This document shows positions 1 through 61,255 of a stretch of DNA of 64,000 bases, one piece after another. The notes under the pieces were generated by a model, which saw nothing but the letters and a program-made list of their open reading frames with translations, was not told the DNA's origin and searched no databases. Each line of letters begins with the position of its first letter. Position 1 is the first letter of the stretch. This DNA is from Candidatus Woesearchaeota archaeon. GTDB lineage: Archaea > Nanobdellota > Nanobdellia > SCGC-AAA011-G17 > GW2011-AR18. The stretch is from assembly GCA_964430545.1 (NCBI GenBank), contig CAYSFG010000035.1, forward strand, positions 4,463-68,462, read 5' to 3'. The position numbers and the translations under genes are program-made.

Positions 1-173
1 ATGCCTAAATCTTCAATCTTTTTTAATATATTCTTTCCAAGTCGAGTATCATTATTAATTTCTACATAAGCTATATTCCATGAATAGGTTTTATTATCGA
101 TAATCGCAATAATTTGTTCTCTTTCTGGTTCTGGTAGGTTTGCATATACTTTAAGAAATTTTTCTTTGCTCAT
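1..173 (-). CDS. hypothetical small protein, 5' part only (continues past window start)
   Basis: ATG at 173-171 on the minus strand is preceded by a GGAGAGGT ribosome-binding site (plus 178-185). The frame is open to the window edge (MSKEKFLKVYANLPEPEREQIIAIIDNKTYSWNIAYVEINNDTRLGKNILKKIEDLG...). It is not in the supplied ORF track because it has no in-window stop. Confidence 0.4.
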   Translation of the reverse strand, partial: MSKEKFLKVYANLPEPEREQIIAIIDNKTYSWNIAYVEINNDTRLGKNILKKIEDLG

Positions 174-242
174 AACCTCTCCTCTACTAAAAATTAATAA
201 GTTATAATACTATATAAACTCTATTGTTTATATCATTGTGGT

Positions 243-263
243 TGCTGAAAAGTAGCAAGGATT
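243..263. repeat. copy 1 of a 21-nt motif TTGCTGARAAGTRGCAAGRAT (5-bp stem TTGCT/AGCAA, 7-nt loop); candidate operator/promoter element
   Basis: Direct sequence match with 1611-1631. It lies 5 nt past the stop of CDS 267-950 and about 70 nt upstream of the start of the minus-strand CDS ending at 173. Confidence 0.5.
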
Positions 264-266
264 ATT

Positions 267-950
267 TTATTCTAATTTTAATATCGCTTCTAGGTGTTTT
301 TCAAATATTTTTTGTTCTATATATCCATGTACTCCTTGTAAGTTGTCTTTGAACTGTTTTGAATTTATTGTTTCTTTTATTTTTTCTAGTCTATCCTTTA
401 GTAAGTATCTATTTGATACTTCTTCTTTTATCCATTCTATTTTTTCTGCTTTAGGCATTAGCATGAATATGTCTCTTATGTCTGTGTTTCTGCAGCTTAT
501 CATTTTCATAACTATTAAAGCATCTATGTTTATTATTCTTAGTTTTAGTTCTTCGTTTATTGTTTTACCTCTTAATAATTTTAAGCTTGAATTTTTTATT
601 ATCCATTCTGATTCAAATGTTGCACTTGTTTGTCTGTCCAATACTTTATCAAATAATATGTCTATGCTTGCTTTAAAATTGTTTTCTAATGTTTTTTCAT
701 ACTTATAAAATTTTCCATGATAAGGCAAATCATTGTTTTCTTTAATTGATTCCTTATAATTTAATTTTAATAATTCTTTTATGATTCTATCTAATTCTTT
801 TTGTTCTTTAATTACAATATCGCAATCTATTGAGAATCTAGGAAGGGTATAAGCATTTACTGCATATCCTCCAATTATTACAAATTTAAATTTCTTTATT
901 GATTTTAATATTTTAAATATTTCTTTTTCTCTAATCTGTAGTTGATCCAT
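267..950 (-). CDS. AbiEii/AbiGii-like nucleotidyltransferase (type IV toxin-antitoxin / abortive-infection toxin family)
   Basis: N-terminal 'FVIIGGYAVNAYTLPRFSIDCDIV' fits the GG(T)A...R.S.D.D motif of the AbiEii-type nucleotidyltransferase. C-terminal 'DALIVMKMISCRNTDIRDIFML' fits the K..A...R..RD.YD motif. It overlaps the upstream gene by 20 nt, indicating operon coupling. Confidence 0.5.
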   Translation of the reverse strand: MDQLQIREKEIFKILKSIKKFKFVIIGGYAVNAYTLPRFSIDCDIVIKEQKELDRIIKELLKLNYKESIKENNDLPYHGKFYKYEKTLENNFKASIDILFDKVLDRQTSATFESEWIIKNSSLKLLRGKTINEELKLRIINIDALIVMKMISCRNTDIRDIFMLMPKAEKIEWIKEEVSNRYLLKDRLEKIKETINSKQFKDNLQGVHGYIEQKIFEKHLEAILKLE

Positions 951-1533
951 ATTTTTTCCTCATGTAATTATAGGCATAATTATACATATTATTATCTTTT
1001 GCTATTTTTAATGTGTTCTTTAATTTTTCTACCTTTAATTCATTTATTGTTTTATTTTCTATTTTCGTTACGGGTATTAATATTATATATTCTCCTATTG
1101 TTGATCCTTTATTGATATAATTAGGTACATTATATTTGTTGAAGAAGTTTTTCCAATAATTTAAATCTTTTTTTAATATTTTTATGAAGTATGGTGATTT
1201 TTCTATTCCCCTTTGTACATATGAGTAATCTGACCATATTTCAACAGCTGATAAGTTAGTGAATGCATATTGTTTATCTGATTTTTTTATTAATTCTGGT
1301 ACTTTAAATTCTAATAAATTTTTGAATATATTATTTGGTTCTAAGCATTTGTAAGTATTTTTTGATTCTTTTTTTATCCATCCAGAATTTAATAATAATG
1401 AAAATATTTTCTTCTTCATGCTATTGCCAACAATCCAGTCTAAATCAGATTGTTTGAATGATTCTATTGAACCATGCTTAGAGAAAAATAAAGCATAGGC
1501 TCTTAATCCAAATTGTGGTATCTCATTTATCAT
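931..1533 (-). CDS. hypothetical protein, putative cognate antitoxin/regulator of the downstream nucleotidyltransferase (AbiEi-like by position)
   Basis: 200-aa ORF translationally coupled to the AbiEii-like gene. I recognise no diagnostic motif; the call rests on gene order alone. Confidence 0.35.
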   Translation of the reverse strand: MINEIPQFGLRAYALFFSKHGSIESFKQSDLDWIVGNSMKKKIFSLLLNSGWIKKESKNTYKCLEPNNIFKNLLEFKVPELIKKSDKQYAFTNLSAVEIWSDYSYVQRGIEKSPYFIKILKKDLNYWKNFFNKYNVPNYINKGSTIGEYIILIPVTKIENKTINELKVEKLKNTLKIAKDNNMYNYAYNYMRKKYGSTTD

Positions 1534-1610
1534 AGTTACCTATTAGGTAACCTTATTTATATAACTTTCGTTTTCTAAACATGGTGCTGTTCTATATAAA
1601 TAAAGCATGA

Positions 1611-1631
1611 TTGCTGAGAAGTGGCAAGAAT
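1611..1631. repeat. copy 2 of the 21-nt motif TTGCTGARAAGTRGCAAGRAT (A->G substitutions keep the stem via G-U pairing)
   Basis: Lies 78 nt upstream of the start (1533) of the minus-strand two-gene module. Matches 243-263 at 18 of 21 positions, differing only by transitions. Confidence 0.5.
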
Positions 1632-1992
1632 AAAATTATGAATAATAAGTTTTATAACTTAGACAAAATCTAATAGTTCATAGAATTTCACTTTATTCCC
1701 CATTATTGTTATTAATTTTGCTCTGAACAAGATATTACTGATTATATGGTCTATTTTAAAATATTCATATGTTAAGTTATTGAATTTTAAGATGTTTCAT
1801 CAGAGTTGCGTCCACTATGCCTTTAGATGAAAGTTATACTATATTTTGTGCAGGAAAACATAAGACTTAAAACTATTTAAGTTAAGTATGGCAAATGTAT
1901 GTGCAGGAAAAGAACCATTTCCAATGCTAAGGCATCTGCCGTCGGCGTATAATTTTCTAAAACTTTAAATACTAAAAGAATATTTTTAATAT

Positions 1993-3753
1993 ATGGTTTT
2001 TTCATTATTAAATATACTAGGTTTATTTGGGTTATTATCATTAATACCTTTAATTATTTTATATTTAATAAAACCAAAACCTGATGTGCTAAAAGTTCCA
2101 TCATTAATGTTTTTTATGCAGAAAACAAAATCATCTAGAATACAATCATTATTTAGATATTTTGAAAGAGAATTATTATTTTTTTTACAATTATTAGTAT
2201 TATTATTACTATCATTAAGTTTGGCACAACCAATATTTACAATAAATAAAGATGCTATTTCAAACAATATTGTTTTTTTATTAGACACAAGTGCAAGTTC
2301 AAATGTTATAGAAGTTAATGGACAAACAAGATTAGAAATATCTAAGAATAAAATAAAAGAATTAGCAACAAACAGGAATTCATTAATATTAATAAAATCA
2401 ATTCCAACATTAGCATTAAAAAATGTAGGAAAATCAGAATTATTAAGATATTTAGATAAAATAAAAAGCACAGATGATTTAAGCGATATATCTTCCAGTA
2501 TAATTGCTGCAAGCGAACTAATAACAGAAGGAAAAGGAAGAATAATAGTTTTAAGTGATATGCACACAAGTAAAGGCATTTCCATAGAAACGGCAAGAAA
2601 TATAATTGAAGGAAAGGGAATACATGTTGATTTAATAAATACTGCATCTTATAATAGAAAAAATATAGGAATAATAAATTTATTAATAACAGAAGATAGT
2701 GCTAATTTATATATAAAAAATTATAATAAGAATCTAGAAAATGTTCAATTAAAAATAGGAAATAATCAAAAGATATTACAAATAAAACCAGGAAATACAG
2801 AACCTTATGTCTTTAAGTATAATGAAGGTGTAACTGAAATAAAAATAGAAAATAAAGATGATTTTAGCAATGATAATAAAGTGTATTTAGTAAAACCTTA
2901 TAATGAAACTGTAAAAGTATTATATATCAGCAATAGTCCTTCTAAATATATAAGTGCAGTATTAAATTCTATACCTGGATTAAAAATAACGTATTCAGAA
3001 CCTCCAATAATATCAAAAAATGATTATGATATATATATAATAAATAATATTGATTATAAAAATATACTTGCTGGAACATTAAATGAAATAAAAGAAAAAA
3101 TGGATAAAGGAAAAATAATTATTTTAACAGCACAATATGATTTAAATAAGTTAGACACAGGGTCATTAATAGGTAAATTTGATAATTTAAAAGATGGTGG
3201 AGAAATTAAAACAAATTTTGCAAGTACATTTACAAAAGATGTAGAATTCGGATATGTAAAGAAATATTATCCTATAAAAGAATTTAAAGGACAACAAATA
3301 GCTGTTGTAGAAAATGATACAATTATAGGAATAGATGAAAATCATGGAAAACTATTTTATTATGGATTGATAGATACTGAAAATGATTTTAAACTAAATC
3401 CAAGTTATCCTGTATTTTGGAATTCAATTATATCTTATTTATTAGGCAGATCAACAATAAATGAATTAAATTTACATACAGGGAATTATTTTTATATAGC
3501 AAATGAAAGTATATTATTGGATAAATCTGGTGTGTTTGATTTTGGAAAAAATAAGATAGCTGTAAATTTATTAAATGAAGAAGAATCAAATATTAATATT
3601 ATAACTAATGTTGGGGAAGTTAATAAAATAGATTCTAAACTTGAAAGCATAAAAACAAATGTTGATTATAAATTAGAATTTTATTTAATATTAATTGCAT
3701 TATTATTAATAGCTTTTGAGTTTTATTATATAAAAAGAAGAGGGGAATTATGA
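1993..3753 (+). CDS. BatA-like membrane protein with N-terminal double-TM 'aerotolerance' domain and a vWA domain
   Basis: N-terminus 'LLSLIPLIILYLIKPKP...RIQSLFRY' resembles the BatA N-terminal domain. vWA MIDAS-type motif 'VFLLDTSASS' (DxSxS). A C-terminal TM helix is followed by 'IKRRGE'. Confidence 0.6.
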   Translation: MVFSLLNILGLFGLLSLIPLIILYLIKPKPDVLKVPSLMFFMQKTKSSRIQSLFRYFERELLFFLQLLVLLLLSLSLAQPIFTINKDAISNNIVFLLDTSASSNVIEVNGQTRLEISKNKIKELATNRNSLILIKSIPTLALKNVGKSELLRYLDKIKSTDDLSDISSSIIAASELITEGKGRIIVLSDMHTSKGISIETARNIIEGKGIHVDLINTASYNRKNIGIINLLITEDSANLYIKNYNKNLENVQLKIGNNQKILQIKPGNTEPYVFKYNEGVTEIKIENKDDFSNDNKVYLVKPYNETVKVLYISNSPSKYISAVLNSIPGLKITYSEPPIISKNDYDIYIINNIDYKNILAGTLNEIKEKMDKGKIIILTAQYDLNKLDTGSLIGKFDNLKDGGEIKTNFASTFTKDVEFGYVKKYYPIKEFKGQQIAVVENDTIIGIDENHGKLFYYGLIDTENDFKLNPSYPVFWNSIISYLLGRSTINELNLHTGNYFYIANESILLDKSGVFDFGKNKIAVNLLNEEESNINIITNVGEVNKIDSKLESIKTNVDYKLEFYLILIALLLIAFEFYYIKRRGEL

Positions 3754-6131
3754 TATTAAATATAAATATAATTGATATAGCTTATAACTATTTTGAAAGA
3801 CCTTATGTTTTATTTATCTATTTATTTATTTTTATTGTATTAATATATTTAATTAATAAAAATTTTGTAGAATTGTCATTAGAAAATATAAAAAAAAGTA
3901 AATCTAAAAGATTATTTATATTCATATCAAGGGCTTTAGTATTTTTATTATTAATAATAGCATTAGCAGGACCTTTTATAGAAAAATCTAAAACAATACA
4001 TGGAGAACCCAGAATAAAAATATTAGTGGATAATTCAACATCTATGCAATTATATGACTTAAAAATAGCTGATAAACTTAAAATAGCATTAGAAAATAAA
4101 ATACCAACAGAAATAGAATATATTACATTTGGCGATAAATCGGCGATAGCAGATGCATTAATGGCAAATGTTAAAAAAAATGAAAATATATTATTAATAA
4201 GTGATGGAAATAATAATGTTGGAATTGAATTAGGTGACGTTGTTTTAAGAGCAAATGCATTAAATGCAACAATAAATGCTATAAAATTAAAATCGAAAAA
4301 TTATGATACTTCAATAAGTATTGCCGGAAGTGACAAGACAATAGCTGATGTAGAAAATACTTTTAAAGTAAGAATACAACAAACAGAAAAAAAACCACTA
4401 AGAGTAATAGTAGATGTAGATGGACAACAAATAATAAATAAAATTACAGATAAAGATTTTGATTTTAAACAAACTTTTATTTCCGGATATCATAAAATAA
4501 CTGCTAAAATAGATAATGTTGATTACTTTCCAGAAAATAGTGTTTATTATAAAACAATAAAAGTAGTGCCAAAACCTAAAATATTAATTATTGGAAAAGA
4601 AACTGATGAAATAGAAACATTGTTTAAACCAATATATGATGTTGTTATTATGGATAATATACCTGAAAATCTTAAAGACTATACTTCTTTAGTTATAGAT
4701 AATATTGACGCAAATGATTTAAATGATAAAACACATCAAATATCAAACTTTGTTGCAGAAGGAAATGGATTATTTGTTATTGGTGGTGGTAATTCTTTTG
4801 ATTCTGGAAATTATAAGGGCTCAAGATTTGAACAAATATTGCCAGCTTATGTGGCAAAAGCAGGAAAGAAAAGAGGAGAAACAAATATTGTATTTGTAAT
4901 AGATATAAGTGGAAGTACAGGACATAAATTTGGAGAATCAGTAAAAGTAGATGTAGAAAAAGCACTTGCAGTAGATATGATACAAAATTTAAGTTTAATA
5001 AATAATGTAGGTGCAGTAGCATTTAATACTTTAAGTTATAAACTTTCAGATATACAACCTTTAATATTAAATAAAAATAAAATGTTAGATATTATATCAA
5101 GATTAAAATATGATGGCGGTACATCTATAGGCCAGGGATTAGGGGCAGCTCTTGAAATGTTACAAGATAAAGGCGGAAGCAAGGACATAATTTTAATATC
5201 AGATGGAAAAAATCAAGATTTTGATGAAGCAAGAAATGCTGCAACTGTAGCTGGAAGTAAGGGAATAAGAATATATTCAGTAGGCGTAGGAGAAGATACA
5301 TATAAAGAAAATATGCAATGGTTTGCTGATATCACAGGAGGAACTTATTTTGAACCTGATTCTACAGATAGAATAAGAGTATTATTTGGAAATACACAAA
5401 GCGTAGGTAATAAAAAAATATTTCCTTTAGTTGTAATTGATAAACACCATTTTATAACAAATGAATTTAATCCAAAAGCAAGTCTCTATGGATATAACCA
5501 AATTGTACCAAGCAGCAGTGGAAAAGTATTAATAACAACAGATATTGGTGACCCTATATTAATTACAGGAAGATTAGGTCTTGGGAGAATAGTAGTATTA
5601 GCAACAGACTACAAACTTTATGGATTTGAATTATTAAACAAAGATAATTCATTATTAACAACAAGAACAATGAACTGGATAATAGGAGATCCAGAAAGAA
5701 AAAATGAAAAATATATAAATATACCTGATACAAGAGAAGATGAAGATGCTCAAATAACTATAAGATCAGAAGAACAACCAGTCTCAGATAATATAGCATT
5801 ATATAAAATAGATAATAAGTTGTATATGGGCAGTATAAGAATTGAAAAAAGAGGTTTTAATAGTGCATTAGGCGCAATATTTGCAGTAAACTATAAAAGA
5901 GAATATCAAAATATAATTATAAACCCTGAACTTGAAGAAATAGTAAAATCTACAAATGGAAGGATGTTTGAAGATAATCAAGTTGATGAAATAGTTGAAT
6001 ATGTTAAACAAAGATCTAATAGAGAGGAATTAAAAAAAGTTAATTATGCATGGATATTTGCTATGATTGCTTTAATAATTTATTTAACAGAAGTATGTAT
6101 AAGAAGAATAGCAAAAAATAAAAATTTATAA
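3750..6131 (+). CDS. membrane-anchored protein with two vWA domains (Bat-like)
   Basis: Two MIDAS motifs, 'ILVDNSTSM' and 'VFVIDISGSTG'. N- and C-terminal TM segments. The ATGA overlap with the upstream gene indicates an operon. Confidence 0.6.
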   Translation: MILNINIIDIAYNYFERPYVLFIYLFIFIVLIYLINKNFVELSLENIKKSKSKRLFIFISRALVFLLLIIALAGPFIEKSKTIHGEPRIKILVDNSTSMQLYDLKIADKLKIALENKIPTEIEYITFGDKSAIADALMANVKKNENILLISDGNNNVGIELGDVVLRANALNATINAIKLKSKNYDTSISIAGSDKTIADVENTFKVRIQQTEKKPLRVIVDVDGQQIINKITDKDFDFKQTFISGYHKITAKIDNVDYFPENSVYYKTIKVVPKPKILIIGKETDEIETLFKPIYDVVIMDNIPENLKDYTSLVIDNIDANDLNDKTHQISNFVAEGNGLFVIGGGNSFDSGNYKGSRFEQILPAYVAKAGKKRGETNIVFVIDISGSTGHKFGESVKVDVEKALAVDMIQNLSLINNVGAVAFNTLSYKLSDIQPLILNKNKMLDIISRLKYDGGTSIGQGLGAALEMLQDKGGSKDIILISDGKNQDFDEARNAATVAGSKGIRIYSVGVGEDTYKENMQWFADITGGTYFEPDSTDRIRVLFGNTQSVGNKKIFPLVVIDKHHFITNEFNPKASLYGYNQIVPSSSGKVLITTDIGDPILITGRLGLGRIVVLATDYKLYGFELLNKDNSLLTTRTMNWIIGDPERKNEKYINIPDTREDEDAQITIRSEEQPVSDNIALYKIDNKLYMGSIRIEKRGFNSALGAIFAVNYKREYQNIIINPELEEIVKSTNGRMFEDNQVDEIVEYVKQRSNREELKKVNYAWIFAMIALIIYLTEVCIRRIAKNKNL

Positions 6132-6153
6132 ACTTTAAAAATGATATAATAAC

Positions 6154-6630
6154 ATGGGATTCATAGACTATAATGCAAATTTGGGATTATTTATACTGAT
6201 AATATTAATATCAGGAATAGCAATAGGACTTACTGTATTTTATCAAGCAAATTTTAAAGATATAAATTATAAATATGATACTAAAATAAGTGAATTAAAT
6301 AAAACATTTGAAAAATTATTAGGAACACAAGATGTATTAAACAAAACAAAAGAAGAACTAGATCTAAAAGCAAAAAGAGAAGAAGATTTATCAGGAAAAT
6401 ATACATCAACAAAAGAACAAAAAGAAAGACTACAAACAGAAAATTCAGGATTATCAAAAGATTTAGCAAACACAAGATCACAAGTTGATATACTTAAAGC
6501 ACAGATAGACCAATTAAATTTGAATATAGTTAGTTTACAAACAACAATATCAGATTTAACAAGCCAAAAAAATAATCTAAATACTATAGTAAACTGCTAC
6601 AGGAGTGCAGCACCAAATGCAAATTGTTGA
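6154..6630 (+). CDS. membrane-anchored coiled-coil protein
   Basis: N-terminal TM helix followed by a long heptad-like stretch rich in E/K/L/Q; lies in the Bat-like operon. Confidence 0.45.
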   Translation: MGFIDYNANLGLFILIILISGIAIGLTVFYQANFKDINYKYDTKISELNKTFEKLLGTQDVLNKTKEELDLKAKREEDLSGKYTSTKEQKERLQTENSGLSKDLANTRSQVDILKAQIDQLNLNIVSLQTTISDLTSQKNNLNTIVNCYRSAAPNANC

Positions 6631-7393
6631 AAAAGCATTAAGAGAAATAAAACTTATGATTTATATATTTGATATTGGCAATTTACTACTTAATACATTT
6701 ATAATATTTATGATAATTTTAATATTTACAATATTATTTAATTTTAAATGGTATTTTGCTTTACTAAGTTTAGTATATTTAATATATTTTATTATAAGAG
6801 AAATTAAAAAAAATAAATATTATATTGTAGAAAATAAAGTAAGAGATTTAAGAGAAAGATTAACAACAGTAGCTGATAATTTGTATAAAACTAATCCTAT
6901 AGTTGATTCTTTAAAAGAAGATGTTGTAAAAGATATAAAAAAAATCAAAACATCTTATTTTATAGATTATAATACATTAACCAGCAGATTGATAATATTT
7001 GGATCATTAACTTTTATTGTTGTATTATTAGCTTTTTTAAGTGTGAAATTTGATTTTCAGGGATTTAAACTACCAGAAGTTAATATTGTTACAAATAGAG
7101 GATTTATTAATCAAACAGAAAATTTAAAATTTAGCTTGTCAGAAGGTAACTTAACTGATATATTAGGAAATAAATCAATAGCTGAATTAGGAAAAAAAGA
7201 ATTAAAATTAACAATAAACCCATTAGAAAGTGATACTAATTTAAATGTTATAAAACAAACTCAAAAAGAAGACTTTAATAGCCCAGATTTTCCAAAAGAA
7301 ATATATACAAGATATGATAGATCATATCAAGAAAAAATAGCTAAAGAAAACCAGAAAATAGTTAAAGATTATTTTGAAAAAATAACAAGGTGA
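6605..7393 (+). CDS. membrane protein (hypothetical, Bat-operon member)
   Basis: Several hydrophobic segments; overlaps the upstream gene; same strand and operon as MoxR. Confidence 0.4.
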   Translation: MQHQMQIVEKALREIKLMIYIFDIGNLLLNTFIIFMIILIFTILFNFKWYFALLSLVYLIYFIIREIKKNKYYIVENKVRDLRERLTTVADNLYKTNPIVDSLKEDVVKDIKKIKTSYFIDYNTLTSRLIIFGSLTFIVVLLAFLSVKFDFQGFKLPEVNIVTNRGFINQTENLKFSLSEGNLTDILGNKSIAELGKKELKLTINPLESDTNLNVIKQTQKEDFNSPDFPKEIYTRYDRSYQEKIAKENQKIVKDYFEKITR

Positions 7394-7397
7394 AAAA

Positions 7398-9722
7398 ATG
7401 GTAAGTATGGAAGAAATACAAAAAAAATTTAAATTGATAAACTCTGAAGTTTCTAAAGTTGTAATTGGACAGGATAAAGTTGTTGAACAATTATTAGTAG
7501 CATTATTATGTAATGGGCATGTTTATTTAGAAGGATATCCGGGATTAGCAAAAACATTATTAGTAAAAACAATATCAAATATAATGGATTTAAAATTCTC
7601 AAGAATACAAGGTACACCAGACTTATTACCTAGTGATGTAACTGGAACTTATATAATAGATGAAAGCAAAGGAAAAAAAGAGTTTAAATTTCAACCAGGA
7701 CCAATATTTGCAAATATAATATTATTAGATGAAGTTAATAGAGCCACCCCTAAGACCCATTCATCAATATTAGAAGCAATGCAAGAAAGACAAGTAACTG
7801 TAGGAAATGCAACATATAAATTAGAAGAACCGTTCTTTGTATTAGCAACTGGAAATCCTATTGAGCAAGAAGGAAGCTTAACATTAGATCAATCAGTTTT
7901 TATAAATGGAGAATTAAAAACAGGACATGAATTATTAGAACAAGTTAAAAATAATAATACCCAAATATTAAAAAATGGAGATTTTGATTTATATAAACTT
8001 GAAGATTCATATACATATTCTTTAAATTCTAATGGAAAACTTAAGAAAAGTGAATGTTATCTTTATACTTTGCCTTATGATGATGAAATTATAAAGGTAA
8101 AAACTAGAATTGGAAGAGAAATTAAAGTTTCTAAAAATCATCCTTTTTTAATAAATGAAAAAGGAGAAATAAAATGGAAGAAAGCAGAAGAACTAATTGA
8201 AGGAGATTATTTAGTTACACCGGCAGCATTAAATGATGAGTATCATACAGAAGAAGTAGTTTCACATTTAGGTATATTAAATGAATTAAATAAAAAGTAT
8301 AAAATAATAAAATATGAAGAATATTTAAAATTAAAAGAACATAAAGAAATAAGCTTACCATCTTGGATATTAAATTTAAACTCTGAACTAAGAAAAGAAT
8401 TTTTGAAAACATTTATTTCATTAGAAGGATGCATAAGAGATAATATGATAAAAGTTTCACAAGCAAATAAAAATAACATTAATATTTTATCTTATTTATT
8501 ATTAAAAGAGGGTATAATTTCATTGTTTTTTGAAAAGAAGAAAAAAAATCATAGTGATTATGTAATAAAAATACAAGGAGAAGACTTTTTAAAATATTTA
8601 TTAAATATAGGATGGCTAAACGAAGAAACAAGAATTGAATGGTTAAATAGAGCAAAAAATGGAAAATTTTCATCTTTCAGAGTAATACCTACACCAAGAA
8701 ATCTTGTATTAAGACTTGTAAATTTATTAGGAATAAATTTAGTTCATACATACAAAAATCGAAAAAACTTTGTTAATAGGGAATGGTATTGTGGATATAA
8801 ATCTATAAAAGAAGGAAGAGAAAATATTTCCTTAGATATGTTTAAATTAATGCTTAATGGAATGGAAAAGGAGATAAATCTTAGAAATAATGTTGATTTA
8901 AATAATATTTCTAAGTCAAAAGATATAAAAAATACGGCGATTTTATGTGGCTTATCTATTAAAGATATTGAAACAAATATTAACATACCTTTTAATAAAA
9001 TTTCTAATTATTATGAAAATAATAATAGCAAACATTCACAACAAATAATAACTTGTGTTAAAAATGAATTTTTAAACAGACTCGAAGAAGCAAAATCTAT
9101 ATTAAACTATTTAAAAAAATTAGCAACAGAAGAAGTGTTATATGACAAAATAGAAAAATTATCTTATGAACCATATAATGGATTAATATTTGGATTGACA
9201 GTTCCAGGATTGCAGAATTATATTGGAGGTTATGGTGCTTGTGGTATTAATCATAATACTTTTAAATTATCAGAGGCACAAGTTGATAGATTTTTATTTA
9301 AAATAAATGTAGAATATCCTAAAATAGAAGAAGAATTAGAAATAGTTAGTAAATACAGTGAAATAACACCAGCTGAGATAAAAATAAAAACAGTATTTAC
9401 AAGTGAAGAATTAATAAAACTACAATCTTATGCAAAACAAATACCTATAGCAAAAGATATATTAAAATATGCTGTAGATTTAGTTGTTAGTACAAGAAAT
9501 AATAAACAATTAATTGAATATGGGGCAAGTCCAAGAGCTAGCATATCTTTAATAATGGCTGGAAAAGCAAGAGCATTAATTAATGGAAGAAAATATGTAA
9601 GTAAAGATGATATTAATGTAATGGCCTTACCTGTATTAAGACACAGAATAATAATCAGCTTTGAAGCAGAAAGACAAAATATGACAGAAGACGATGTGAT
9701 AACTAAATTAATTAAGAAATAA
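7398..9722 (+). CDS. MoxR-family AAA+ ATPase interrupted by an intein
   Basis: Walker A 'GYPGLAKT'. The extein junctions rejoin to '...ATGNPIEQEG|TFKLSEAQVDRF...', which resembles the conserved MoxR block NPIEQEGTYPLPEAQLDRF. The protein is 774 aa against about 310-320 aa expected for MoxR. Confidence 0.85.
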   Translation: MVSMEEIQKKFKLINSEVSKVVIGQDKVVEQLLVALLCNGHVYLEGYPGLAKTLLVKTISNIMDLKFSRIQGTPDLLPSDVTGTYIIDESKGKKEFKFQPGPIFANIILLDEVNRATPKTHSSILEAMQERQVTVGNATYKLEEPFFVLATGNPIEQEGSLTLDQSVFINGELKTGHELLEQVKNNNTQILKNGDFDLYKLEDSYTYSLNSNGKLKKSECYLYTLPYDDEIIKVKTRIGREIKVSKNHPFLINEKGEIKWKKAEELIEGDYLVTPAALNDEYHTEEVVSHLGILNELNKKYKIIKYEEYLKLKEHKEISLPSWILNLNSELRKEFLKTFISLEGCIRDNMIKVSQANKNNINILSYLLLKEGIISLFFEKKKKNHSDYVIKIQGEDFLKYLLNIGWLNEETRIEWLNRAKNGKFSSFRVIPTPRNLVLRLVNLLGINLVHTYKNRKNFVNREWYCGYKSIKEGRENISLDMFKLMLNGMEKEINLRNNVDLNNISKSKDIKNTAILCGLSIKDIETNINIPFNKISNYYENNNSKHSQQIITCVKNEFLNRLEEAKSILNYLKKLATEEVLYDKIEKLSYEPYNGLIFGLTVPGLQNYIGGYGACGINHNTFKLSEAQVDRFLFKINVEYPKIEEELEIVSKYSEITPAEIKIKTVFTSEELIKLQSYAKQIPIAKDILKYAVDLVVSTRNNKQLIEYGASPRASISLIMAGKARALINGRKYVSKDDINVMALPVLRHRIIISFEAERQNMTEDDVITKLIKK
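7875..9257 (+). mobile_element. intein (461 aa) with probable LAGLIDADG-type homing endonuclease domain inside the MoxR ATPase
   Basis: Block A 'SLTLDQSVFINGE' begins immediately after EQEG. Block B-like 'KVSKNHPFL'. Endonuclease-like 'FLKTFISLEGCI'. C-terminal 'GINHN' is followed by Thr (+1). Removing the insert restores a contiguous MoxR. Confidence 0.75.
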
Positions 9723-9731
9723 ATTCAGTCT

Positions 9732-10583
9732 ATGGTAATACAAACAGATTTTCTAAGACAATTGGATAAATTTAACTTAGTAATACATAAAAAAGTAGCA
9801 TCAGGTTTTATTGGCGATAGAAGAGCAAATTTTACAGGATCAGGATTAATATTTAAAGATTATTCAACTTATGTACCAGGAGATGATTTTAAACATATAG
9901 ATTGGCTAGTTTATGGGAAGACAGATAAATTATATGTGAAAAGATATGAAGAAGATAGAAACTTAACAATACATATATTATTAGATATAAGTGGAAGCAT
10001 GAATTTTGGAACTAAAATTAAAAAATATGAATTTGGGAGTATGATAGCATTAGGATTTAGTTATATAGCAATGAAAAATAATGAAAAATTTGTATTAAGT
10101 ACATTTGATGATAAATTAGAATTTTTTAAACCAAAAAAAGGAGCAAGACAATTAGCTGCAATATTAAATTATTTAAATAGTAAAACAGCAAAGGGAATAA
10201 GCAGCTTTGAGCAATCATTAATTAGTTATAAAAGTTTAGTAAACTCAAGAGCAATGATTATAATAATATCAGATTTTTTTTATGATATAGAACAAATAAA
10301 GACAATATTACATAAGTATAAGAATAATAAAATAAAATTAATACAGGTTTTAGATTCAGTAGAAAAAAAAATGAATTTAGATGGAGAATATAATTTAGTT
10401 GATCTTGAAAGTGATAATAAAATGCATACTTATATAGATCCATTAGTAAGACAAGAATATTTAAAAAGATTAGAAGAACATAATACTAAAATAATAAATT
10501 CTTGTGCTGAAGTTAAAGCAGACTTTTATACTGTTAATAATGAAGAAAACATATTTGATGTATTTTATAGAATATTAAATTAA
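9732..10583 (+). CDS. DUF58 family protein (vWA-like, MoxR partner)
   Basis: 'YVPGDDFKHIDWLVYGKTDKLYVKRYEEDRNLTIHILLDISGSM' matches the DUF58 signature; lies immediately downstream of MoxR. Confidence 0.75.
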   Translation: MVIQTDFLRQLDKFNLVIHKKVASGFIGDRRANFTGSGLIFKDYSTYVPGDDFKHIDWLVYGKTDKLYVKRYEEDRNLTIHILLDISGSMNFGTKIKKYEFGSMIALGFSYIAMKNNEKFVLSTFDDKLEFFKPKKGARQLAAILNYLNSKTAKGISSFEQSLISYKSLVNSRAMIIIISDFFYDIEQIKTILHKYKNNKIKLIQVLDSVEKKMNLDGEYNLVDLESDNKMHTYIDPLVRQEYLKRLEEHNTKIINSCAEVKADFYTVNNEENIFDVFYRILN

Positions 10584-12077
10584 ATAAATATTATCTAAAT
10601 CTTCTTTAATTACATAATCCAGTTTATATTTATCTTCTGCGTAAATTTTAAATAAAATCTCTCTTTTTATAACTTTATCATTTACTTTTTTATACAAATA
10701 AATTCCCGCCCCTTTATCATAAGGAGCTCCAGCTATTTTTGCAATTTTGGAAACTAAACGATTACTAATAATTTTAATTCTACCAGATTTTTTAGATTTA
10801 TAATCAAAAGTGTATTTACCTAAACTTATATCTTCAGGTTTAATATTTGGATTGCCACCTTGAGCTTTAATAATTTCCTGCATTTTTTTATAAGCCAGAC
10901 CAGACTCTAATATTTCACTAGCTTTTTTACCACCATTTTTTACTCCAACCATTTCTAATAATAATCCTGCCATATAAACTGATTTTTTTGATAAATCTTC
11001 AGGACCATTATTTTGCAAAACTTTTAAAACATCAATCGCTTCAAGAGCGGGACCAACACCATTACCAATAGGTTGATCTCCATTTGTTATTATTACTTTA
11101 ATTTTAAGATTAAGTTTTTTACCAAGAATAATAAATTTTTTTGATAAATCTTCTGCTTTTTTTATAGATTTAAATTTAGCTTCACGACCAATAGGAATGT
11201 CAATTAAAACATGAGTAGAACCTGCGGATAATTTTTTAGCTAATATAGATGCTAATAAAAAACCTTCTGGATCAATATTTAATACTTTTTCTAATTTAAT
11301 TAATTTATCATCGGCAGAAGCCAAATCTAAAGCACCCCCCCAAACCATACAACCATTAGTTTTATTTACTATTTCCATAATTTTGTCTTTAGAAAAAGAA
11401 ACAGGAGCTAATACTTCTACACAATCTGAAGTTCCTGCGGGAGATGTAATAGACCTAGTAGAAGTTTTTGGAATTATAAAACCTGCTGCTGCAATAATAG
11501 GAACTACAATCATAGTTGTTCTGTTGTTGGGAATTCCACCTATTGAATGTTTATCTGCAATAATTTTTTTATTAAACTTTAATTTGCCACTATTATTAAC
11601 AATTGCTTTAGTTAAATATGCAGATTCGTTTAATGTCATACCATTAATGTAACAAGCAGAAACAAAATAAGTAGCTTCAACTTCTGTTAATATATTTGAT
11701 AATAAATCTTTTATAATTTGATCAATCTCTTTTTCATTTAATTCATTATTATCTAACTTCTTTTTAATATAATCTAAAGATTTTGGTATTTGAGTAGGAA
11801 AAACTTCTATAATTTCATTATCTTTTAAACTTAATTCATCAGCAACATCTATGAAAACACCTATTTCTCCCTGTTCTATCCCTTTTTTTCCTAAAGCTTC
11901 ATCTACAGAAATTATTAAACTTTTTTTATTTTTTATTTCTATCCTGTCTAAAGGTTTAATTCCTAAATCATTAATATCTTTTTCATTTAATATACCAATA
12001 AATGGTCCTTTTGTTGCTATTTGTAATATCTTAATTTTAAGTTTCAATTTTATTACCACCAAAATTAAAATAATCAT
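10575..12077 (-). CDS. deoA: AMP phosphorylase / thymidine phosphorylase family (archaeal-type, about 500 aa)
   Basis: Glycosyl-transferase family 3 motifs 'KHSIGGIPNNRTTMIVVPIIAAAGFIIPKTSTRSITSPAGTSD'; length typical of archaeal AMP phosphorylase. The true start is probably the TTG at about 12047 ('LKLKIKILQ...'), which would remove the overlap with the upstream gene. Confidence 0.8.
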   Translation of the reverse strand: MIILILVVIKLKLKIKILQIATKGPFIGILNEKDINDLGIKPLDRIEIKNKKSLIISVDEALGKKGIEQGEIGVFIDVADELSLKDNEIIEVFPTQIPKSLDYIKKKLDNNELNEKEIDQIIKDLLSNILTEVEATYFVSACYINGMTLNESAYLTKAIVNNSGKLKFNKKIIADKHSIGGIPNNRTTMIVVPIIAAAGFIIPKTSTRSITSPAGTSDCVEVLAPVSFSKDKIMEIVNKTNGCMVWGGALDLASADDKLIKLEKVLNIDPEGFLLASILAKKLSAGSTHVLIDIPIGREAKFKSIKKAEDLSKKFIILGKKLNLKIKVIITNGDQPIGNGVGPALEAIDVLKVLQNNGPEDLSKKSVYMAGLLLEMVGVKNGGKKASEILESGLAYKKMQEIIKAQGGNPNIKPEDISLGKYTFDYKSKKSGRIKIISNRLVSKIAKIAGAPYDKGAGIYLYKKVNDKVIKREILFKIYAEDKYKLDYVIKEDLDNIYLI

Positions 12078-13035
12078 TTAATATTATTATAAAAGAAGAT
12101 AAAATTATTGGTCCGACAATGAAACCTATAGCCCCGAATATGCTAATACCACCTAAGGCACCAAGTATTACAACAATGGGGTGAACATTAGCCTTTATTT
12201 GAGCAACTTTTGCTTTAATGAAATGTTCTGTTAAATTTAATATTATCCCTATAATTATTAAACCAACTACTTGTGTAGTATCTCCTTCTAAAAGTGCAAA
12301 AAATGCTATAGGAAGCCATATAACTACAGGGCCTATAAAAGGAATAAAAGCAGCTATACCTATCATCAATGCAAATAGAAATGGAGAATGAATTCCTAAT
12401 AACTTAAATCCTAATAAAGATATGATAAACTGAATTATTGCTGTTAAAAATAAGCCATATATTATAGCATCTGTTACATTTTTAATATGATTTACAAGTT
12501 CTGATCTTTTTTTAATTGGAATTATACACCTTATTTTGTCTACAAATTTTTCTCCTAAAATTAAAAAATAAAACAAAGCTAAAATTGATATAAATAATGA
12601 TATTAATTTTGATGGTACATTAAATAAAAAATTAATTGTTTCTATTTTAATGTATGATATAACTTTAGTAATACTATCTGAAATTAGTATACTTAAAGTT
12701 GGCTGATTTTTAAAATAAGATGAAGTAATATCTTGAATATTATTTACAATGTTGCCTTCTTTAATTATGTTAATTGTTTCTTTTGATATAGAATTTGCTA
12801 TAAAAACAATAGGCAATAAAAATATTATAATTATTAATATTGTTACAATTAATGCGCTTATAATATCATTTTTTATTACAGACATTAATTTTTTATATAA
12901 AGGATACCCTAAATAAGCAAGGATTGAACTTATTAATAATGCTGAAATAAATGGTTTGATTATGGTAAATGATAGATAAATTATGATTATAAGAAAACCT
13001 ATTAGGACATATTTATTAAATTCTTCTTTATCCAT
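12037..13035 (-). CDS. AI-2E family (UPF0118/PerM-like) transporter
   Basis: About 330 aa with eight predicted TM helices in the arrangement typical of AI-2E permeases. Confidence 0.45.
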   Translation of the reverse strand: MDKEEFNKYVLIGFLIIIIYLSFTIIKPFISALLISSILAYLGYPLYKKLMSVIKNDIISALIVTILIIIIFLLPIVFIANSISKETINIIKEGNIVNNIQDITSSYFKNQPTLSILISDSITKVISYIKIETINFLFNVPSKLISLFISILALFYFLILGEKFVDKIRCIIPIKKRSELVNHIKNVTDAIIYGLFLTAIIQFIISLLGFKLLGIHSPFLFALMIGIAAFIPFIGPVVIWLPIAFFALLEGDTTQVVGLIIIGIILNLTEHFIKAKVAQIKANVHPIVVILGALGGISIFGAIGFIVGPIILSSFIIILNDYFNFGGNKIET

Positions 13036-13089: not shown

Positions 13090-15159
13090 ATGTGTGGAAT
13101 AATAGGAGTATTTGGGGATAAAAATTCAAGAAAACTTGTTCAGAAAGAATTAGAGTTAATTAATAATAGGGGCAGAGATGGAAAATTTTTTATAAGATTA
13201 GATAATGATTCTAGCGTTGGACATTGTTTACATGCTGTAGTTGGAAAGTTAAAACAACCATTAAAAGCTAAAGGAATATTTTTAGCAAATTGTGAAATAT
13301 ATAATTGGAAAGAATTAAGTTCAGAATATCTAATAAAATCTGAAAACGATGCTGATTTATTTTTTAAATTAATTGAAAAAATTGGATTAGAAGAAACTTT
13401 AGAATTAGTTGATGGGGATTATGCTGGATGTTATATTATTAATAATAAATTATATTTATTTAAAGATTTATTAGGTGTAAAACCGTTATGGTATAGTTTT
13501 AATAAAAAATTTGTATTTGCTTCTGAGAAAAAAGTTCTTGAGAATTTAGGATGTGAAAAAATATATGACCTTAGCCCTAGAATGATTTTAATTTATAACA
13601 TTAAAAATAGTAAATTAACTTTTATTAATAGAAAATTTATAGAACTTAATAAAAATGAGAAAGAATATCCTATAATAAAAAAAGAAACATTAGGATTATT
13701 AATAAATGCAATATCAAAAAGAATACCTGACAGCAAATTTGGAGTAATGTTCTCCGGCGGAATAGATTCTGTTTTTATAACATTAATATTAAAACAATTA
13801 AGAGTTAAATTTAATTGTTATACTTGTATTGTAGAAGATGGCAATTTTAACAAGGCAGAAGATCTTATATATTCTGAAAAAATAGCTAAAGAATTAGGAT
13901 TAAAATTAAAAATTATAAAGGTTCAATTAAAAGATATTAAAAAAGCTTTAAAAATAGTTCCTATAACTATAGAATCTAATAATGTTACGAAAGTTAGTGT
14001 TGCATTACCTTTTTATTTTATATCTAAAAAAGCAAAAGAAGATGGTTGTAAAGTATTAATGTCTGGATTAGGAAGTGAAGAAATATTTGCAGGATATGAA
14101 AGACATAAAAGAAGTTTAGATATAAATAAAGAATGTTATTCAGGATTATTATGGCTTTATGAAAGAGATTTATACAGAGATGATGTAATAACAATGTATA
14201 ATAGTGTTGAATTAAGAGTCCCATTTCTTGACTTAACGTTAGTAAAATATGTTTTGAATATAGATCAAAAATATAAAATTAATAATGAGAATAATAAAAT
14301 AATTTTAAGAGAAATAGCTTTTGGATTAGGGTTAAAAAAAGAATATGCTTACAGGAAAAAAAGAGCAGCACAGTATGGTGGAAATTTTGATAAAGCCATA
14401 GATAAATTAGCTAGATTAGAAAATGCTAAAAGTAAATCTGAATATTTATATAAATATTATCATAAACCTAATTTGAAATTAGGTGTATTATATTCTGGTG
14501 GAAAAGATAGTAATTATTCTATGTATATAATGCAAAAACAGAATTATGAAATAAAATGTTTAATAAGTTTAAAAAGTTTAAATAAAGATTCATATATGTT
14601 TCATACTCCTAATATAAATTTTGTAAAATACCAAAGTGAAGCTTTAGAAATACCTATATTAATACAAGAAACTAAAGGAGAGAAAGAAAATGAATTAGAA
14701 GATATGAAAAATATTTTATTAAAAGCTAAAGAAAAATATGGATTGCAAGGTATAGTAACTGGGGCCTTATATTCCAATTATCAAAGGGACAGAATAGAAA
14801 AAATATGTGATTCAATAGGTCTAAAAGTATTTTCCCCGTTATGGCATAAAGAACAATTACAAGAACTTAAAGAGATTATAAATGAAGGATTTGAAGTTAT
14901 AATAATAAGAATAGCTGCAGATGGACTAAATAAAAACTGGTTGGGAAGAAAATTAGATTTTAAAGCTGTTGAAGAATTGGAAAGGTTATATTTGAAAAAT
15001 GGACTAAATATTGCAGGTGAGGGTGGCGAATTTGAGACATTTGTTTTAAATGGCCCTAATTTTAAAAAAATAATTCATATAGAAAAGTCTAAAATAAAAA
15101 TGGAATCTGAAAATTGTGGAGATTTAATTATTGAAAAAATTGGATTAAAAGATAAATGA
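13090..15159 (+). CDS. fusion protein: class-II glutamine amidotransferase + asparagine-synthetase-like PP-loop domain fused to a Dph6/MJ0570-type ATP pyrophosphatase (diphthine-ammonia ligase-like) domain
   Basis: N-terminus 'MCGIIGVF' (Cys2 nucleophile) and 'GHCLHAVVG...CEIYNWKEL'; PP-loop 'SGGIDS' about residue 222. A second PP-loop 'YSGGKDS' about residue 470 plus 'GEGGEFETFVLNGPNF' is the Dph6/MJ0570 hallmark. Confidence 0.7.
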   Translation: MCGIIGVFGDKNSRKLVQKELELINNRGRDGKFFIRLDNDSSVGHCLHAVVGKLKQPLKAKGIFLANCEIYNWKELSSEYLIKSENDADLFFKLIEKIGLEETLELVDGDYAGCYIINNKLYLFKDLLGVKPLWYSFNKKFVFASEKKVLENLGCEKIYDLSPRMILIYNIKNSKLTFINRKFIELNKNEKEYPIIKKETLGLLINAISKRIPDSKFGVMFSGGIDSVFITLILKQLRVKFNCYTCIVEDGNFNKAEDLIYSEKIAKELGLKLKIIKVQLKDIKKALKIVPITIESNNVTKVSVALPFYFISKKAKEDGCKVLMSGLGSEEIFAGYERHKRSLDINKECYSGLLWLYERDLYRDDVITMYNSVELRVPFLDLTLVKYVLNIDQKYKINNENNKIILREIAFGLGLKKEYAYRKKRAAQYGGNFDKAIDKLARLENAKSKSEYLYKYYHKPNLKLGVLYSGGKDSNYSMYIMQKQNYEIKCLISLKSLNKDSYMFHTPNINFVKYQSEALEIPILIQETKGEKENELEDMKNILLKAKEKYGLQGIVTGALYSNYQRDRIEKICDSIGLKVFSPLWHKEQLQELKEIINEGFEVIIIRIAADGLNKNWLGRKLDFKAVEELERLYLKNGLNIAGEGGEFETFVLNGPNFKKIIHIEKSKIKMESENCGDLIIEKIGLKDK

Positions 15160-17292: not shown

Positions 17293-17934
17293 ATGAAAAA
17301 ATATATACAAGTAAATAAAGAACATTATTTCCATGATTATGATAATCTTGAGAGGTTTATTTCTTATTATTATCAATGCAAATTATTATTAGACTTAAAA
17401 CCTAAAACTGTATTAGAAATAGGTGTTGGTAATAGACTAACTTCTGATTATTTAAAAAATTATGGCCTTAATGTAACAAGTTGTGATATAGATAAAGCAT
17501 TAAAACCGGATTTTATAACAGATGTTAGAAAATTAAATTTTAAAAATAATAGTTTTGATGTGGTTTATGCTTTTCAAGTATTAGAACATCTGCCTTTTGA
17601 AGATTTTGAAAAATCATTATTGGAATTATATAGGGTTAGTAATAAATATGTTGTAATATCATTACCTTTTTATGGAACAAGCTTTGAGATAATACTAAAA
17701 TTTCCATTATTGAATAAATTAATAGGAAAAAGTTATATAAATTTATTTTTTAGATTTAATTATTTTTTTAAAAAGTTTAAATTTAATGGGCAACATTATT
17801 GGGAATTAGGAAGTAAAGGATGTTCATTAAATAAAATAAGAAATATACTAAATAAAAAATTTAAGATAATCAAAGAATTAAGACCTGTATTAAATAGTTA
17901 TCATTACTTTTTTGTATTAGAAAAATTATCTTAA
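17293..17934 (+). CDS. class I SAM-dependent methyltransferase
   Basis: Motif I 'VLEIGVGNRL'; motif post-I 'CDID'. Confidence 0.6.
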   Translation: MKKYIQVNKEHYFHDYDNLERFISYYYQCKLLLDLKPKTVLEIGVGNRLTSDYLKNYGLNVTSCDIDKALKPDFITDVRKLNFKNNSFDVVYAFQVLEHLPFEDFEKSLLELYRVSNKYVVISLPFYGTSFEIILKFPLLNKLIGKSYINLFFRFNYFFKKFKFNGQHYWELGSKGCSLNKIRNILNKKFKIIKELRPVLNSYHYFFVLEKLS

Positions 17935-18792
17935 TGCTTTTACAATTAATTCAGAAACATCTATTTTAGAATGTTTGTTAAGAATTGTATTTGTTGTTAT
18001 TATATTTCTTGTATTCTGTTTTATTTCATCATAAACTCTCTTATCTGCAAAAATACCATGTATGCTAATAACGTCAATAGATTTAGGTTTATATTTTTTA
18101 ATAGTTTTAATTGCTTCTAATATTGTATGGCCTGTAGAAATGATATCATCAATTATTATTATATCTTTTTTTTCTAAATTTATATCTTTATTTAAGTGAA
18201 CCCTAACTTTATTAGAACTAAACCTATTTTTATGCATAACTGCTGCTGAAGCATTAATTTTATTAGCAATACTCTGTGCCCACTGATAACTTTCATCATC
18301 AGGACCTATTATTACAGGATTCTTATAATTTTTAGCTATATAATCATCTATTAAATCATTAGCTGATAATTTTATACATTTTATAGGATATGCTTCATTT
18401 AAATTTTTATATCTGTGAAGATGAGGATCAATAGTTATTAATTCATCAAATACTTTAAATAATTGGCCCATATATTTACTAGTTATCGATTCGCCCGGAT
18501 TAAATCTTTTATCTTGTCGCATATAAGCAAGATAAGGGCATATTGCAATGACTTTTTTAGCCCCTAAATCTCTAGCTGTGTAACCTGCAAATAATAATTC
18601 TAAAGTTGATTCATTTGGTTCATATAATGTTTGTATTAGAATTAAATTTTCATTCTTAACATTAATATTAAATCTTAAATTTAATTCACCATCAGGAAAA
18701 TGATTAACAAATAAATCTGAATATTTAACATTTAATTTTTTAGCTATAGATCTTCCTAACTCTTTTGATTTAGAACAACCTATTATTATCAT
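17926..18792 (-). CDS. prs: ribose-phosphate pyrophosphokinase (PRPP synthetase)
   Basis: 'HFPDGE' near the N-terminus; PRPP-binding motif 'IIIDDIISTGHTI'; 288 aa. Confidence 0.85.
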   Translation of the reverse strand: MIIIGCSKSKELGRSIAKKLNVKYSDLFVNHFPDGELNLRFNINVKNENLILIQTLYEPNESTLELLFAGYTARDLGAKKVIAICPYLAYMRQDKRFNPGESITSKYMGQLFKVFDELITIDPHLHRYKNLNEAYPIKCIKLSANDLIDDYIAKNYKNPVIIGPDDESYQWAQSIANKINASAAVMHKNRFSSNKVRVHLNKDINLEKKDIIIIDDIISTGHTILEAIKTIKKYKPKSIDVISIHGIFADKRVYDEIKQNTRNIITTNTILNKHSKIDVSELIVKALR

Positions 18793-61213: not shown

Positions 61214-61255
61214 AAATACTAAAATAATACAATAAGTAAATAAAGCTTACTAAAA

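Follow-up and report, generated by a model that had tools for sequence, protein, structure and literature searches.

Why should an enzyme whose reaction is defined as using free ammonia share a polypeptide with a module that resembles a glutamine-hydrolyzing amidotransferase? Diphthamide, a modification of elongation factor 2 (EF-2), is conserved in archaea and eukaryotes. In its last step, the one defined as using free ammonia, Dph6 adenylates the diphthine carboxylate on EF-2 and amidates it to diphthamide. The question is raised by a gene in a stretch of 64,000 nucleotides from a Candidatus Woesearchaeota archaeon (contig CAYSFG010000035.1; the whole stretch is called the window below). A 689-codon open reading frame (ORF) at 13090-15159 of the forward strand opens with MCGIIGVF, runs without interruption and encodes, in a single polypeptide and in this order, a class-II glutamine amidotransferase (GAT-II) domain, an Asn_synthase PP-loop domain and a DUF71/Dph6 domain.

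We tentatively favor the explanation that amidation of diphthine on EF-2 is the task of the C-terminal domain and that the N-terminal module, docked onto it, delivers the nitrogen, and we regard this as quite possible while stopping short of calling it probable. The fusion itself, the character of its two halves and the behavior of its relatives bear on this explanation and on its rivals.

The fusion gene and its distribution

Homologues were sought among 5.8 billion proteins, using data from NCBI, JGI, ENA and Logan, and this search gave at least 120 full-length matches. A separate scan of one genome per prokaryotic species gave 80 loci, in which a copy was called full-length if a single ORF aligned from residue 1 to at least residue 655. 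Residue counts out of 121 refer to 121 fusion proteins, and counts out of 56 to the full-length copies in GTDB species-representative genomes. The forms of the AsnB-like subfamily were collected with phmmer, searching residues 1-455 against 1.84 billion cluster representatives. The gene and its parts are as follows.

13090..15159, + strand: three-module AsnB-like/Dph6 fusion, complete coding sequence; unbroken ORF of 689 amino acids plus stop, at least 120 collinear homologues, AlphaFold2 model
13090..13659, + strand: class-II (Ntn) glutamine amidotransferase domain, residues 1-190; Pfam GATase_7 and GATase_6, codon of the Cys2 nucleophile at 13093-13095
13228..13233, + strand: Leu47-His48, at the site of Arg49-Leu50 of Escherichia coli AsnB; Leu in 121/121, His in 121/121, no Arg in the 56 genome copies
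13660..14409, + strand: AsnB-type PP-loop (adenylating) domain, residues 191-440; Pfam Asn_synthase, Foldseek match to 1ct9, SGGIDS at 13753-13770
14068..14070, + strand: Leu327 codon, at the site of the catalytic Glu of asparagine synthetases; Leu in 115/121, never Glu, L327 facing human E364 in the HMMER pairwise alignment
14410..14475, + strand: conserved inter-module connector, residues 441-462; family conservation, predicted local distance difference test score (pLDDT) of about 93-97
14476..15156, + strand: Dph6 (DUF71/PF01902) domain, residues 463-689; TIGR03679 and PDB matches, SGGKDS at 14494-14511, EGGEFE at 15019-15036

Pfam places GATase_7 at residues 55-151, Asn_synthase at 203-342 plus a second stretch, and Diphthami_syn_2 at 463-683 (E = 3e-66), and GATase_6 also matches the N-terminal domain. 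An earlier reading of the letters and translations (the sequence-only reading) had proposed an amidotransferase/AsnB-like N-terminal part joined to a C-terminal Dph6 part on one chain. This arrangement is borne out by Pfam, NCBIfam and PDB alignments. The boundary that it had put at about residues 450/460 agrees with the hidden Markov model (HMM) and PDB alignments, and a motif scan finds both PP-loops and the GEGGEFETFV signature where it had placed them (SGGIDS at 13753, SGGKDS at 14494 and GEGGEFETFV at 15019 of the window).

The fusion ORF is genuine and is not the product of an assembly chimera or a frameshift. Looking for the same fusion elsewhere returned at least 120 collinear homologues and 56 genome copies, which together with the intact frame exclude a chimera of two adjacent genes or a hidden frameshift. 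GC content is even across the gene (0.227-0.231), in a window of about 23% GC. The homologues, at least 120 in number, are 682-720 amino acids long, align over 96-100% of the query's length, are 51-100% identical to it, have the identical domain set and lie on contigs of up to 1 Mb. PF28410.1 is also listed among the precomputed domains of all of them.

The full-length fusion was found in 56 of the 80 genome loci. Hosts represented by metagenome-assembled genomes (MAGs) include Woesearchaeota, Nanoarchaeota, Iainarchaeum, Diapherotrites and Altiarchaeota; further hosts are Methanolobus (including the cultured M. bombayensis DSM 7082), Methanomethylovorans, Methanohalophilus, ANME-3, ANME-1, Syntrophoarchaeum, Methanomicrobiales and Halobacteria MAGs. 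Among the matches listed, the nearest named homologues of the window protein are from Woesearchaeota and Nanoarchaeota. In the species-representative scan, archaea of very distant lineages have retained the fusion, with identities of 39-55%, and many of the proteins already bear the label "diphthine--ammonia ligase" at NCBI. Near-invariant columns of the family alignment make up 22% of the GAT domain, 23% of the AsnB-like PP-loop domain and 23% of the Dph6 domain. Judged by this alignment, all three modules are under similar constraint, and the distribution indicates that the fusion is real and selectively retained.

The architecture is not new, although the sequence-only reading had taken it to be undescribed. 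A fusion of AsnB (GAT-II plus Asn_Synthase_B_C) to DUF71, designated COG0367-COG2102, was shown in 2012 for Methanohalophilus mahii, Methanosalsum zhilinae and "Ca. Nanosalinarum sp. J07AB56" (de Crecy-Lagard et al. 2012, Biol Direct 7:32, PMC3541065). In that paper the GAT-II domain was proposed as the supplier of NH3 to DUF71, and the reviewer L. Aravind asked which of the two PP-loop domains uses the ammonia and what the asparagine-synthetase-like domain catalyzes (PMC3541065). We found no later literature on the AsnB-DUF71 fusion beyond PMC3541065, and two citing papers add nothing to it. The window protein is a further DPANN member of this published architecture, which is widespread in databases.

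The Dph6 domain and the AsnB-like module

Its family matches identify the C-terminal domain as a diphthine--ammonia ligase of the ordinary archaeal kind. Residues 466-683 score 276.4 bits against TIGR03679 (Dph6_archaeal), for which the equivalog cut-off is 197.3, which upholds the earlier assignment of the C-terminal half to the Dph6/MJ0570 family, and PF01902 gives 223.5 bits against a cut-off of 23.2. Residues 464-668 match PH1257 (2d13) with E = 3e-61, and residues 464-688 match PF0828 (3rjz) with E = 7e-58. In Foldseek comparisons with PF0828 and PH1257, the predicted domain reaches a TMt of 0.95-0.97 with a root-mean-square deviation (rmsd) of 1.2-1.5 A and 40-46% identity. Its two motifs are S469-G-G-K472-D473-S474 and E644-G-G-E647-F-E649, the latter, EGGE-x-E, corresponding to the E183/E186/E188 region of PF0828 (PMC3541065). 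S469, G471, K472, D473, E644, G645, G646, E647 and E649 are invariant in the 121 family members and the 56 genome copies.

The connector that joins this domain to the N-terminal module is itself conserved, with S450, Y452, L453, Y457 and N461 at 90% or more and F456 at 84%. From an alignment of 120 sequences, AlphaFold2 (AF2) predicts that the three modules form a single compact body. Over the whole 689-residue chain, the mean pLDDT is 92.9 and the predicted template modeling score (pTM) is 0.90, with no low-confidence linker. Such values over the entire chain argue for a fixed arrangement of the modules. They bear on the possibility that the fusion is unlinked in function, that is, that an AsnB-like amidotransferase with a metabolic role of its own came to share a frame with Dph6 when the stop between their genes was lost, and that the two persist as independent enzymes on one chain. 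Both halves do occur as stand-alone proteins, and related genomes commonly encode Dph6 on its own (L071-L081). Nevertheless, a conserved connector and a pTM of this height speak for a fixed interface and not for beads on a string, and chance joining does not sit well with retention across distant archaea at the identities given above. We consider an unlinked fusion unlikely.

The N-terminal module was aligned with E. coli AsnB and with a second AsnB encoded in the window, and residues are given below with the E. coli number first and the query number second. AsnB models are the best matches for residues 1-455, and the possibility that this is a true glutamine-dependent asparagine synthetase, fused to Dph6 by happenstance, has to be considered. 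TIGR01536 (asn_synth_AEB) matches residues 2-342 with E = 1e-73, residues 1-428 match human asparagine synthetase (6gq3) with E = 2e-27, and the fold matches that of E. coli AsnB (1ct9; Foldseek TMt 0.81, rmsd 2.7 A). The scores, however, fall under the family cut-offs, with 249.2 bits against 267.1 for TIGR01536 and 201.2 bits against 499 for PRK09431 (NF006949), and it is another protein of the window that passes TIGR01536.

What the module has kept is largely the chemistry of glutamine hydrolysis and of ATP binding. In the glutaminase site, Cys1 (C2), R30-G31 (R27-G28), the oxyanion-hole Asn74 (N67), Glu76 (E69) and Asp98 (D87) are invariant in the 121 fusion proteins, and D33 (D30) is also kept in the fusion family. 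The tunnel-side motif R137-D138 is present as R/K125-D126. The PP-loop, S222-G-G-I-D226-S227 in the query, is intact in all 56 genome copies, and the AMP contacts S346 (S325), G347 (G326), Y357 (Y336), D384 (D360), R387 (R363), K429 (K403) and K449 (K424) are conserved.

What has been replaced lies at the glutamine anchor and on the aspartate side. In asparagine synthetases, Arg49, Asn74, Gly75, Glu76 and Asp98 serve glutamine positioning and hydrolysis, and K376, D384, R387 and K449 contact beta-aspartyl-AMP (PMC4659947); a T-T-x-R motif binds aspartate and ATP (PMC5775275). The side chain of human Arg-48 is placed to contact glutamine, and the human enzyme is inactive when E364 is changed to Ala or Gln (PMC6748925). 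In the fusion family, Arg49 has given way to Leu47 and is followed by His48, both invariant, and the oxyanion-hole Gly75 is Cys68 in 116 of 121. The HMMER pairwise alignment sets L47 opposite human R49 (Met-numbered). For the catalytic glutamate, we take E348 of E. coli AsnB to be the counterpart of human E364. Its place is taken by Leu327 in most members, and by L, S, M or T, but never Glu, in the 56 genome copies. Lys376 has become Gly352, Arg325 is Gly or Ser303, and Thr323 is Lys301, which is invariant in the fusion family. The aspartate-specific residues have been swapped for other conserved ones (K301, L327, G352 and Y362-R363-D364-D365), and the subfamily can be recognized by a set of hallmarks, namely H-x-L-H in place of H-x-R-L, N-C-E, Lys301, Leu/Ser327 and R-K-K-x-A-A-Q-Y-G-S.

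The residue pattern marks the N-terminal module as a distinct, strongly constrained AsnB-like subfamily and not as canonical AsnB. The module very probably does not make asparagine, because Arg49, Glu348, Lys376 and Arg325 are lost, the glutamate being the residue without which the human enzyme is inactive. Cut-offs and active-site residues together rule out canonical AsnB function, and a true asparagine synthetase fused by happenstance is a very improbable explanation. The sequence-only reading had described this half "as in AsnB", which is right for the fold, the Cys2 nucleophile and the PP-loop but does not extend to the TIGR01536 cut-off or to the positions of Arg49, Gly75, Glu348, Lys376 and Arg325. 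For annotation, residues 1-455 should not be counted as a capability for asparagine biosynthesis. The glutaminase is plausibly active in the window protein, as Cys2, R27, N67, E69, D87 and R/K125-D126 are kept in the query's clade, where the site looks intact.

Proposed nitrogen delivery and the series of relatives

In the favored explanation, the Dph6 domain should, as is established for Dph6, activate the diphthine carboxylate of EF-2 by adenylation and convert it to diphthamide, and the AsnB-like module would be its dedicated and rigidly docked partner. An amide donor would be hydrolyzed at Cys2; most simply this would be glutamine, held without the usual contact to Arg49. The ammonia would travel through an AsnB-type interdomain tunnel toward the PP-loop domains, and diphthamide synthesis would be freed from free ammonia. 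More speculatively, with Leu in place of Glu348, what was once the aspartate site may now serve as a passage or as a regulatory ATP site. Channeling of glutamine nitrogen to Dph6 is what we infer, and the same glutamine-to-ammonia hypothesis was reached independently in the 2012 paper (PMC3541065).

The relatives of the window protein form an architectural series that speaks to which part of the N-terminal module matters to Dph6. The full three-module fusion is the commonest form. A second form lacks the GAT domain and consists of the AsnB-like PP-loop domain fused to Dph6; it was found in six genomes (L056, L059, L060, L061, L062 and L065), measures 480-531 amino acids from stop to stop and has a Met start 25-50 residues ahead of the PP-loop. 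No GAT-like ORF was found elsewhere in the fetched flanks of these six loci. In a third form the two PP-loop proteins are encoded by adjacent genes. One such pair (L070) has a 266-amino-acid AsnB-like PP-loop gene at 44-844 and a 220-amino-acid Dph6 gene at 841-1503 (+), overlapping by 4 bp; in the other (L078), a 297-amino-acid AsnB-like PP-loop gene at 5057-5950 (-) and a 226-amino-acid Dph6 gene at 6004-6684 (+) are divergent and 53 bp apart. Chance joining does not predict that the pairing should recur in this second and third form, which is a further point against an unlinked fusion.

A fourth form is the full fusion with a degenerate GAT site, which accounts for 6 of the 56 full-length copies (L040, L043, L045, L046, L049 and L052), from Halobacteria, Methanospirareceae, ANME-1, Methanomicrobiales and one Methanosarcinales MAG. 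All six carry D in place of N74 and A in place of G75 and have Ser instead of D98 or lack this residue, and in L043, L045 and L046 the Cys2 nucleophile is also lost (Thr or Tyr). From these substitutions, the GAT site of the six looks catalytically dead, and both of their PP-loops are intact. Taking all full-length fusions together, both PP-loops and the Dph6 motifs are intact in 56 of 56, whereas about one fusion in five has no glutaminase or a disabled one.

Two further forms have no Dph6 domain. Stand-alone GAT plus PP-loop proteins of about 440-470 amino acids share the hallmark residues and stop 3-15 residues past the position aligned to residue 453, and stand-alone PP-loop-only proteins measure 260-310 amino acids. 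Stand-alone AsnB-like genes lie in housekeeping neighborhoods, beside Cbf5/TruB, eIF-6, prefoldin and SRP54.

Two odd long ORFs were also seen, L009 at 16-3150 (+) and P0147 (1005 amino acids), in which an unrelated N-terminus is joined at about residue 14-15, so that Cys2 is removed. In L009 the added part resembles a DRG/Obg GTPase, and in P0147 it is the N-terminus of an SMC protein. Because a DRG-like gene directly neighbors the AsnB-like gene in L078, L009 may reflect a deletion or a misassembly.

As the GAT domain is lost or dead in some relatives, the constant partner of Dph6 would be the AsnB-like PP-loop domain, with the glutaminase as an accessory and not an indispensable partner. 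This PP-loop domain probably contributes an ATP-dependent step of its own to the process that Dph6 serves, and the coupling of the two PP-loop domains is supported by the six GAT-less fusions and the adjacent split genes of L070 and L078.

Several observations weigh against nitrogen delivery by the fused module. The anchor for the alpha-carboxylate of glutamine, Arg49, is absent in every member, and use of glutamine is therefore not assured. The AsnB-like PP-loop and its ATP contacts are invariant, which is more than a mere conduit for ammonia needs. With 6 of 56 fusions carrying a degenerate GAT domain and six further genomes carrying none, Dph6 in this family can apparently work without a fused glutaminase. 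A Dph6 gene was absent within 5-8 kb of the stand-alone AsnB-like gene in all four loci with complete genes on long contigs (L082, L083, L084 and L085), which fits an independent function of the AsnB-like protein. The searchable literature yielded no experiment on any member of the fusion. Finally, neither an EF-2 diphthamide motif nor a further Dph6 motif occurs in the 64-kb window, and the 27 other window ORFs that were scanned contain no Dph2 or Dph5 domain.

Some of these points fit a different explanation, in which two ATP-dependent reactions are coupled. The AsnB-like PP-loop domain would adenylate and amidate, or ligate in some other way, a second carboxylate, on EF-2 or elsewhere in the translation apparatus, while Dph6 amidates diphthine, and the GAT domain would feed mainly its own PP-loop domain, as in AsnB. 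Invariant ATP-site residues combined with replacement of the aspartate-side residues by conserved ones are the pattern of a change of substrate and not of a loss of function, and the housekeeping neighborhoods of the stand-alone genes point the same way, as does the question that Aravind raised in his review (PMC3541065). Against this stands the loss of the glutamate that asparagine synthetases need for adenylate chemistry, which makes ordinary acyl-adenylate formation doubtful, and the gene neighborhoods examined offer no candidate substrate for a second reaction. To our knowledge, there is also no second amidated residue on archaeal EF-2, which counts against such a reaction. We think a second, coupled reaction rather unlikely.

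In many archaea, the AsnB-like subfamily of PP-loop amidotransferases may also be an obligatory second catalytic component of diphthamide synthesis, or of a further modification made together with it, so that two PP-loop domains cooperate and an optional glutaminase removes the need for free ammonia. This, too, we offer as a conjecture that is more doubtful than probable.

Gene surroundings and comparison with known systems

The genes next to the fusion do not tie it to the diphthamide pathway. Upstream lies a divergent gene for an AI-2E-family transporter (12037-13035), and downstream, on the same strand and 105 bp away, a homologue of tRNA (uracil-5)-methyltransferases. Other nearby genes encode an AMP-phosphorylase-like protein, other methyltransferases, PRPP synthetase and an STT3/AglB homologue. 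An operon link to the diphthamide pathway was considered and rejected, as the neighbors are unrelated and the window contains no EF-2 motif. Without operon-level support, the assignment to the pathway rests on the Dph6 domain itself.

The AMP-phosphorylase/thymidine-phosphorylase-like protein (10575-12077 (-), 500 amino acids) and ribose-phosphate pyrophosphokinase (17926-18792 (-)) flank the region, and genes of these two kinds are typical of archaeal nucleotide salvage in reduced genomes. Farther upstream, a MoxR-type AAA ATPase (AAA_3 plus AAA_lid_2) at 7398-9722 (+) is split by an intein, with an Intein_splicing match at residues 204-620. It is followed by a DUF58/VWA protein at 9732-10583 and preceded by BatA-like and VWA proteins at 1993-6131; together these genes look like a MoxR-VWA/Bat-like cluster. 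With its 23% GC, the STT3/AglB homologue, the intein-bearing MoxR ATPase and the AMP-phosphorylase-like gene, the window has the look of DPANN DNA. On a 1.07-Mb contig from a related archaeon (L082), an AI-2E-family transporter gene at 3715-4740 is followed about 3 kb downstream by a stand-alone AsnB-like gene at 8001-9350 (449 amino acids, no Dph6 domain), and the proximity of such a transporter to an AsnB-like gene in both L082 and the window may be remnant synteny.

The second asnB, at 58383-60251 (-), encodes 622 amino acids. The sequence-only reading had called it a separate canonical asnB; it is indeed present and passes the TIGR01536 cut-off with 481 bits, but the canonical role is doubtful given its neighbors. 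Its best match, at 487 bits, is the EPS-type amidotransferase model TIGR03108, although this score is below that model's cut-off. At the positions of Arg49, Gly75 and Glu348 it still has an Arg, a Gly and an acidic residue. The surrounding region, including the neighbors at 56605-58382 (+) and 60287-62434 (-), holds two SDR sugar-epimerase-like genes, an ArnC/AglJ-like GT2 glycosyltransferase and a radical SAM/SPASM protein. From this context, the second asnB may serve glycan amidation rather than asparagine supply.

Should the AsnB-like module indeed feed or assist Dph6, archaea would possess a glutamine-dependent route to diphthamide, and a role would be found for a widespread archaeal paralogue that is automatically named either "asparagine synthase" or "diphthine--ammonia ligase". 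The divergence of its residues and the series of forms in which the GAT domain is optional sharpen the question, posed in 2012, of which PP-loop domain uses ammonia. The fusion is carried by cultured strains of Methanolobus and Methanohalophilus, in which this question can be tested.

Compared with the fusions of 2012, the window protein has the same order of modules and invites the same hypothesis of glutamine-derived NH3. Its copy differs from those Methanosarcinales fusions in coming from a DPANN lineage and from DNA of low GC content. It aligns end to end with the fusions of Methanolobus and Methanomethylovorans (L019-L025) at 44-47% identity, including 46% over residues 1-689 for Methanolobus bombayensis DSM 7082 (L021). 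The protein of Methanohalophilus sp. RSK (L057) is 44% identical over residues 107-669 and is aligned only from residue 107. Position 327 is Leu in the DPANN clade, whereas it is Ser in Methanolobus, Methanomethylovorans and several MAG copies, and position 352 is Gly in the former and Asp in the latter.

E. coli AsnB (1ct9) and human asparagine synthetase (6gq3) share with the window module the two-domain fold (TMt 0.78-0.81), the Cys nucleophile, Asn74, Glu76 and Asp98, the SGGxDS loop and the AMP contacts. Unlike them, the window module is about 100 residues shorter, scores below the family cut-offs, carries Dph6 at its C-terminus and has swapped Arg49, Gly75, Glu348, Lys376, Arg325 and Thr323.

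The stand-alone archaeal Dph6 proteins (PH1257, 2d13; PF0828, 3rjz/3rk0/3rk1) resemble the window domain in SGGKDS, EGGE-x-E, fold and TIGR03679 membership. They measure about 220-240 amino acids and use free ammonia according to EC 6.3.1.14, whereas the window Dph6 bears a 460-amino-acid N-terminal AsnB-like module and a conserved connector. A parallel in design is found in eukaryotes, where Dph6 (yeast YLR143W) is likewise joined to a partner for which local production of ammonia has been proposed (PMC3541065). The yeast partner consists of two C-terminal RidA/YjgF (deaminase-like) domains, whereas the partner in the window protein is an unrelated AsnB-like module at the N-terminal end.

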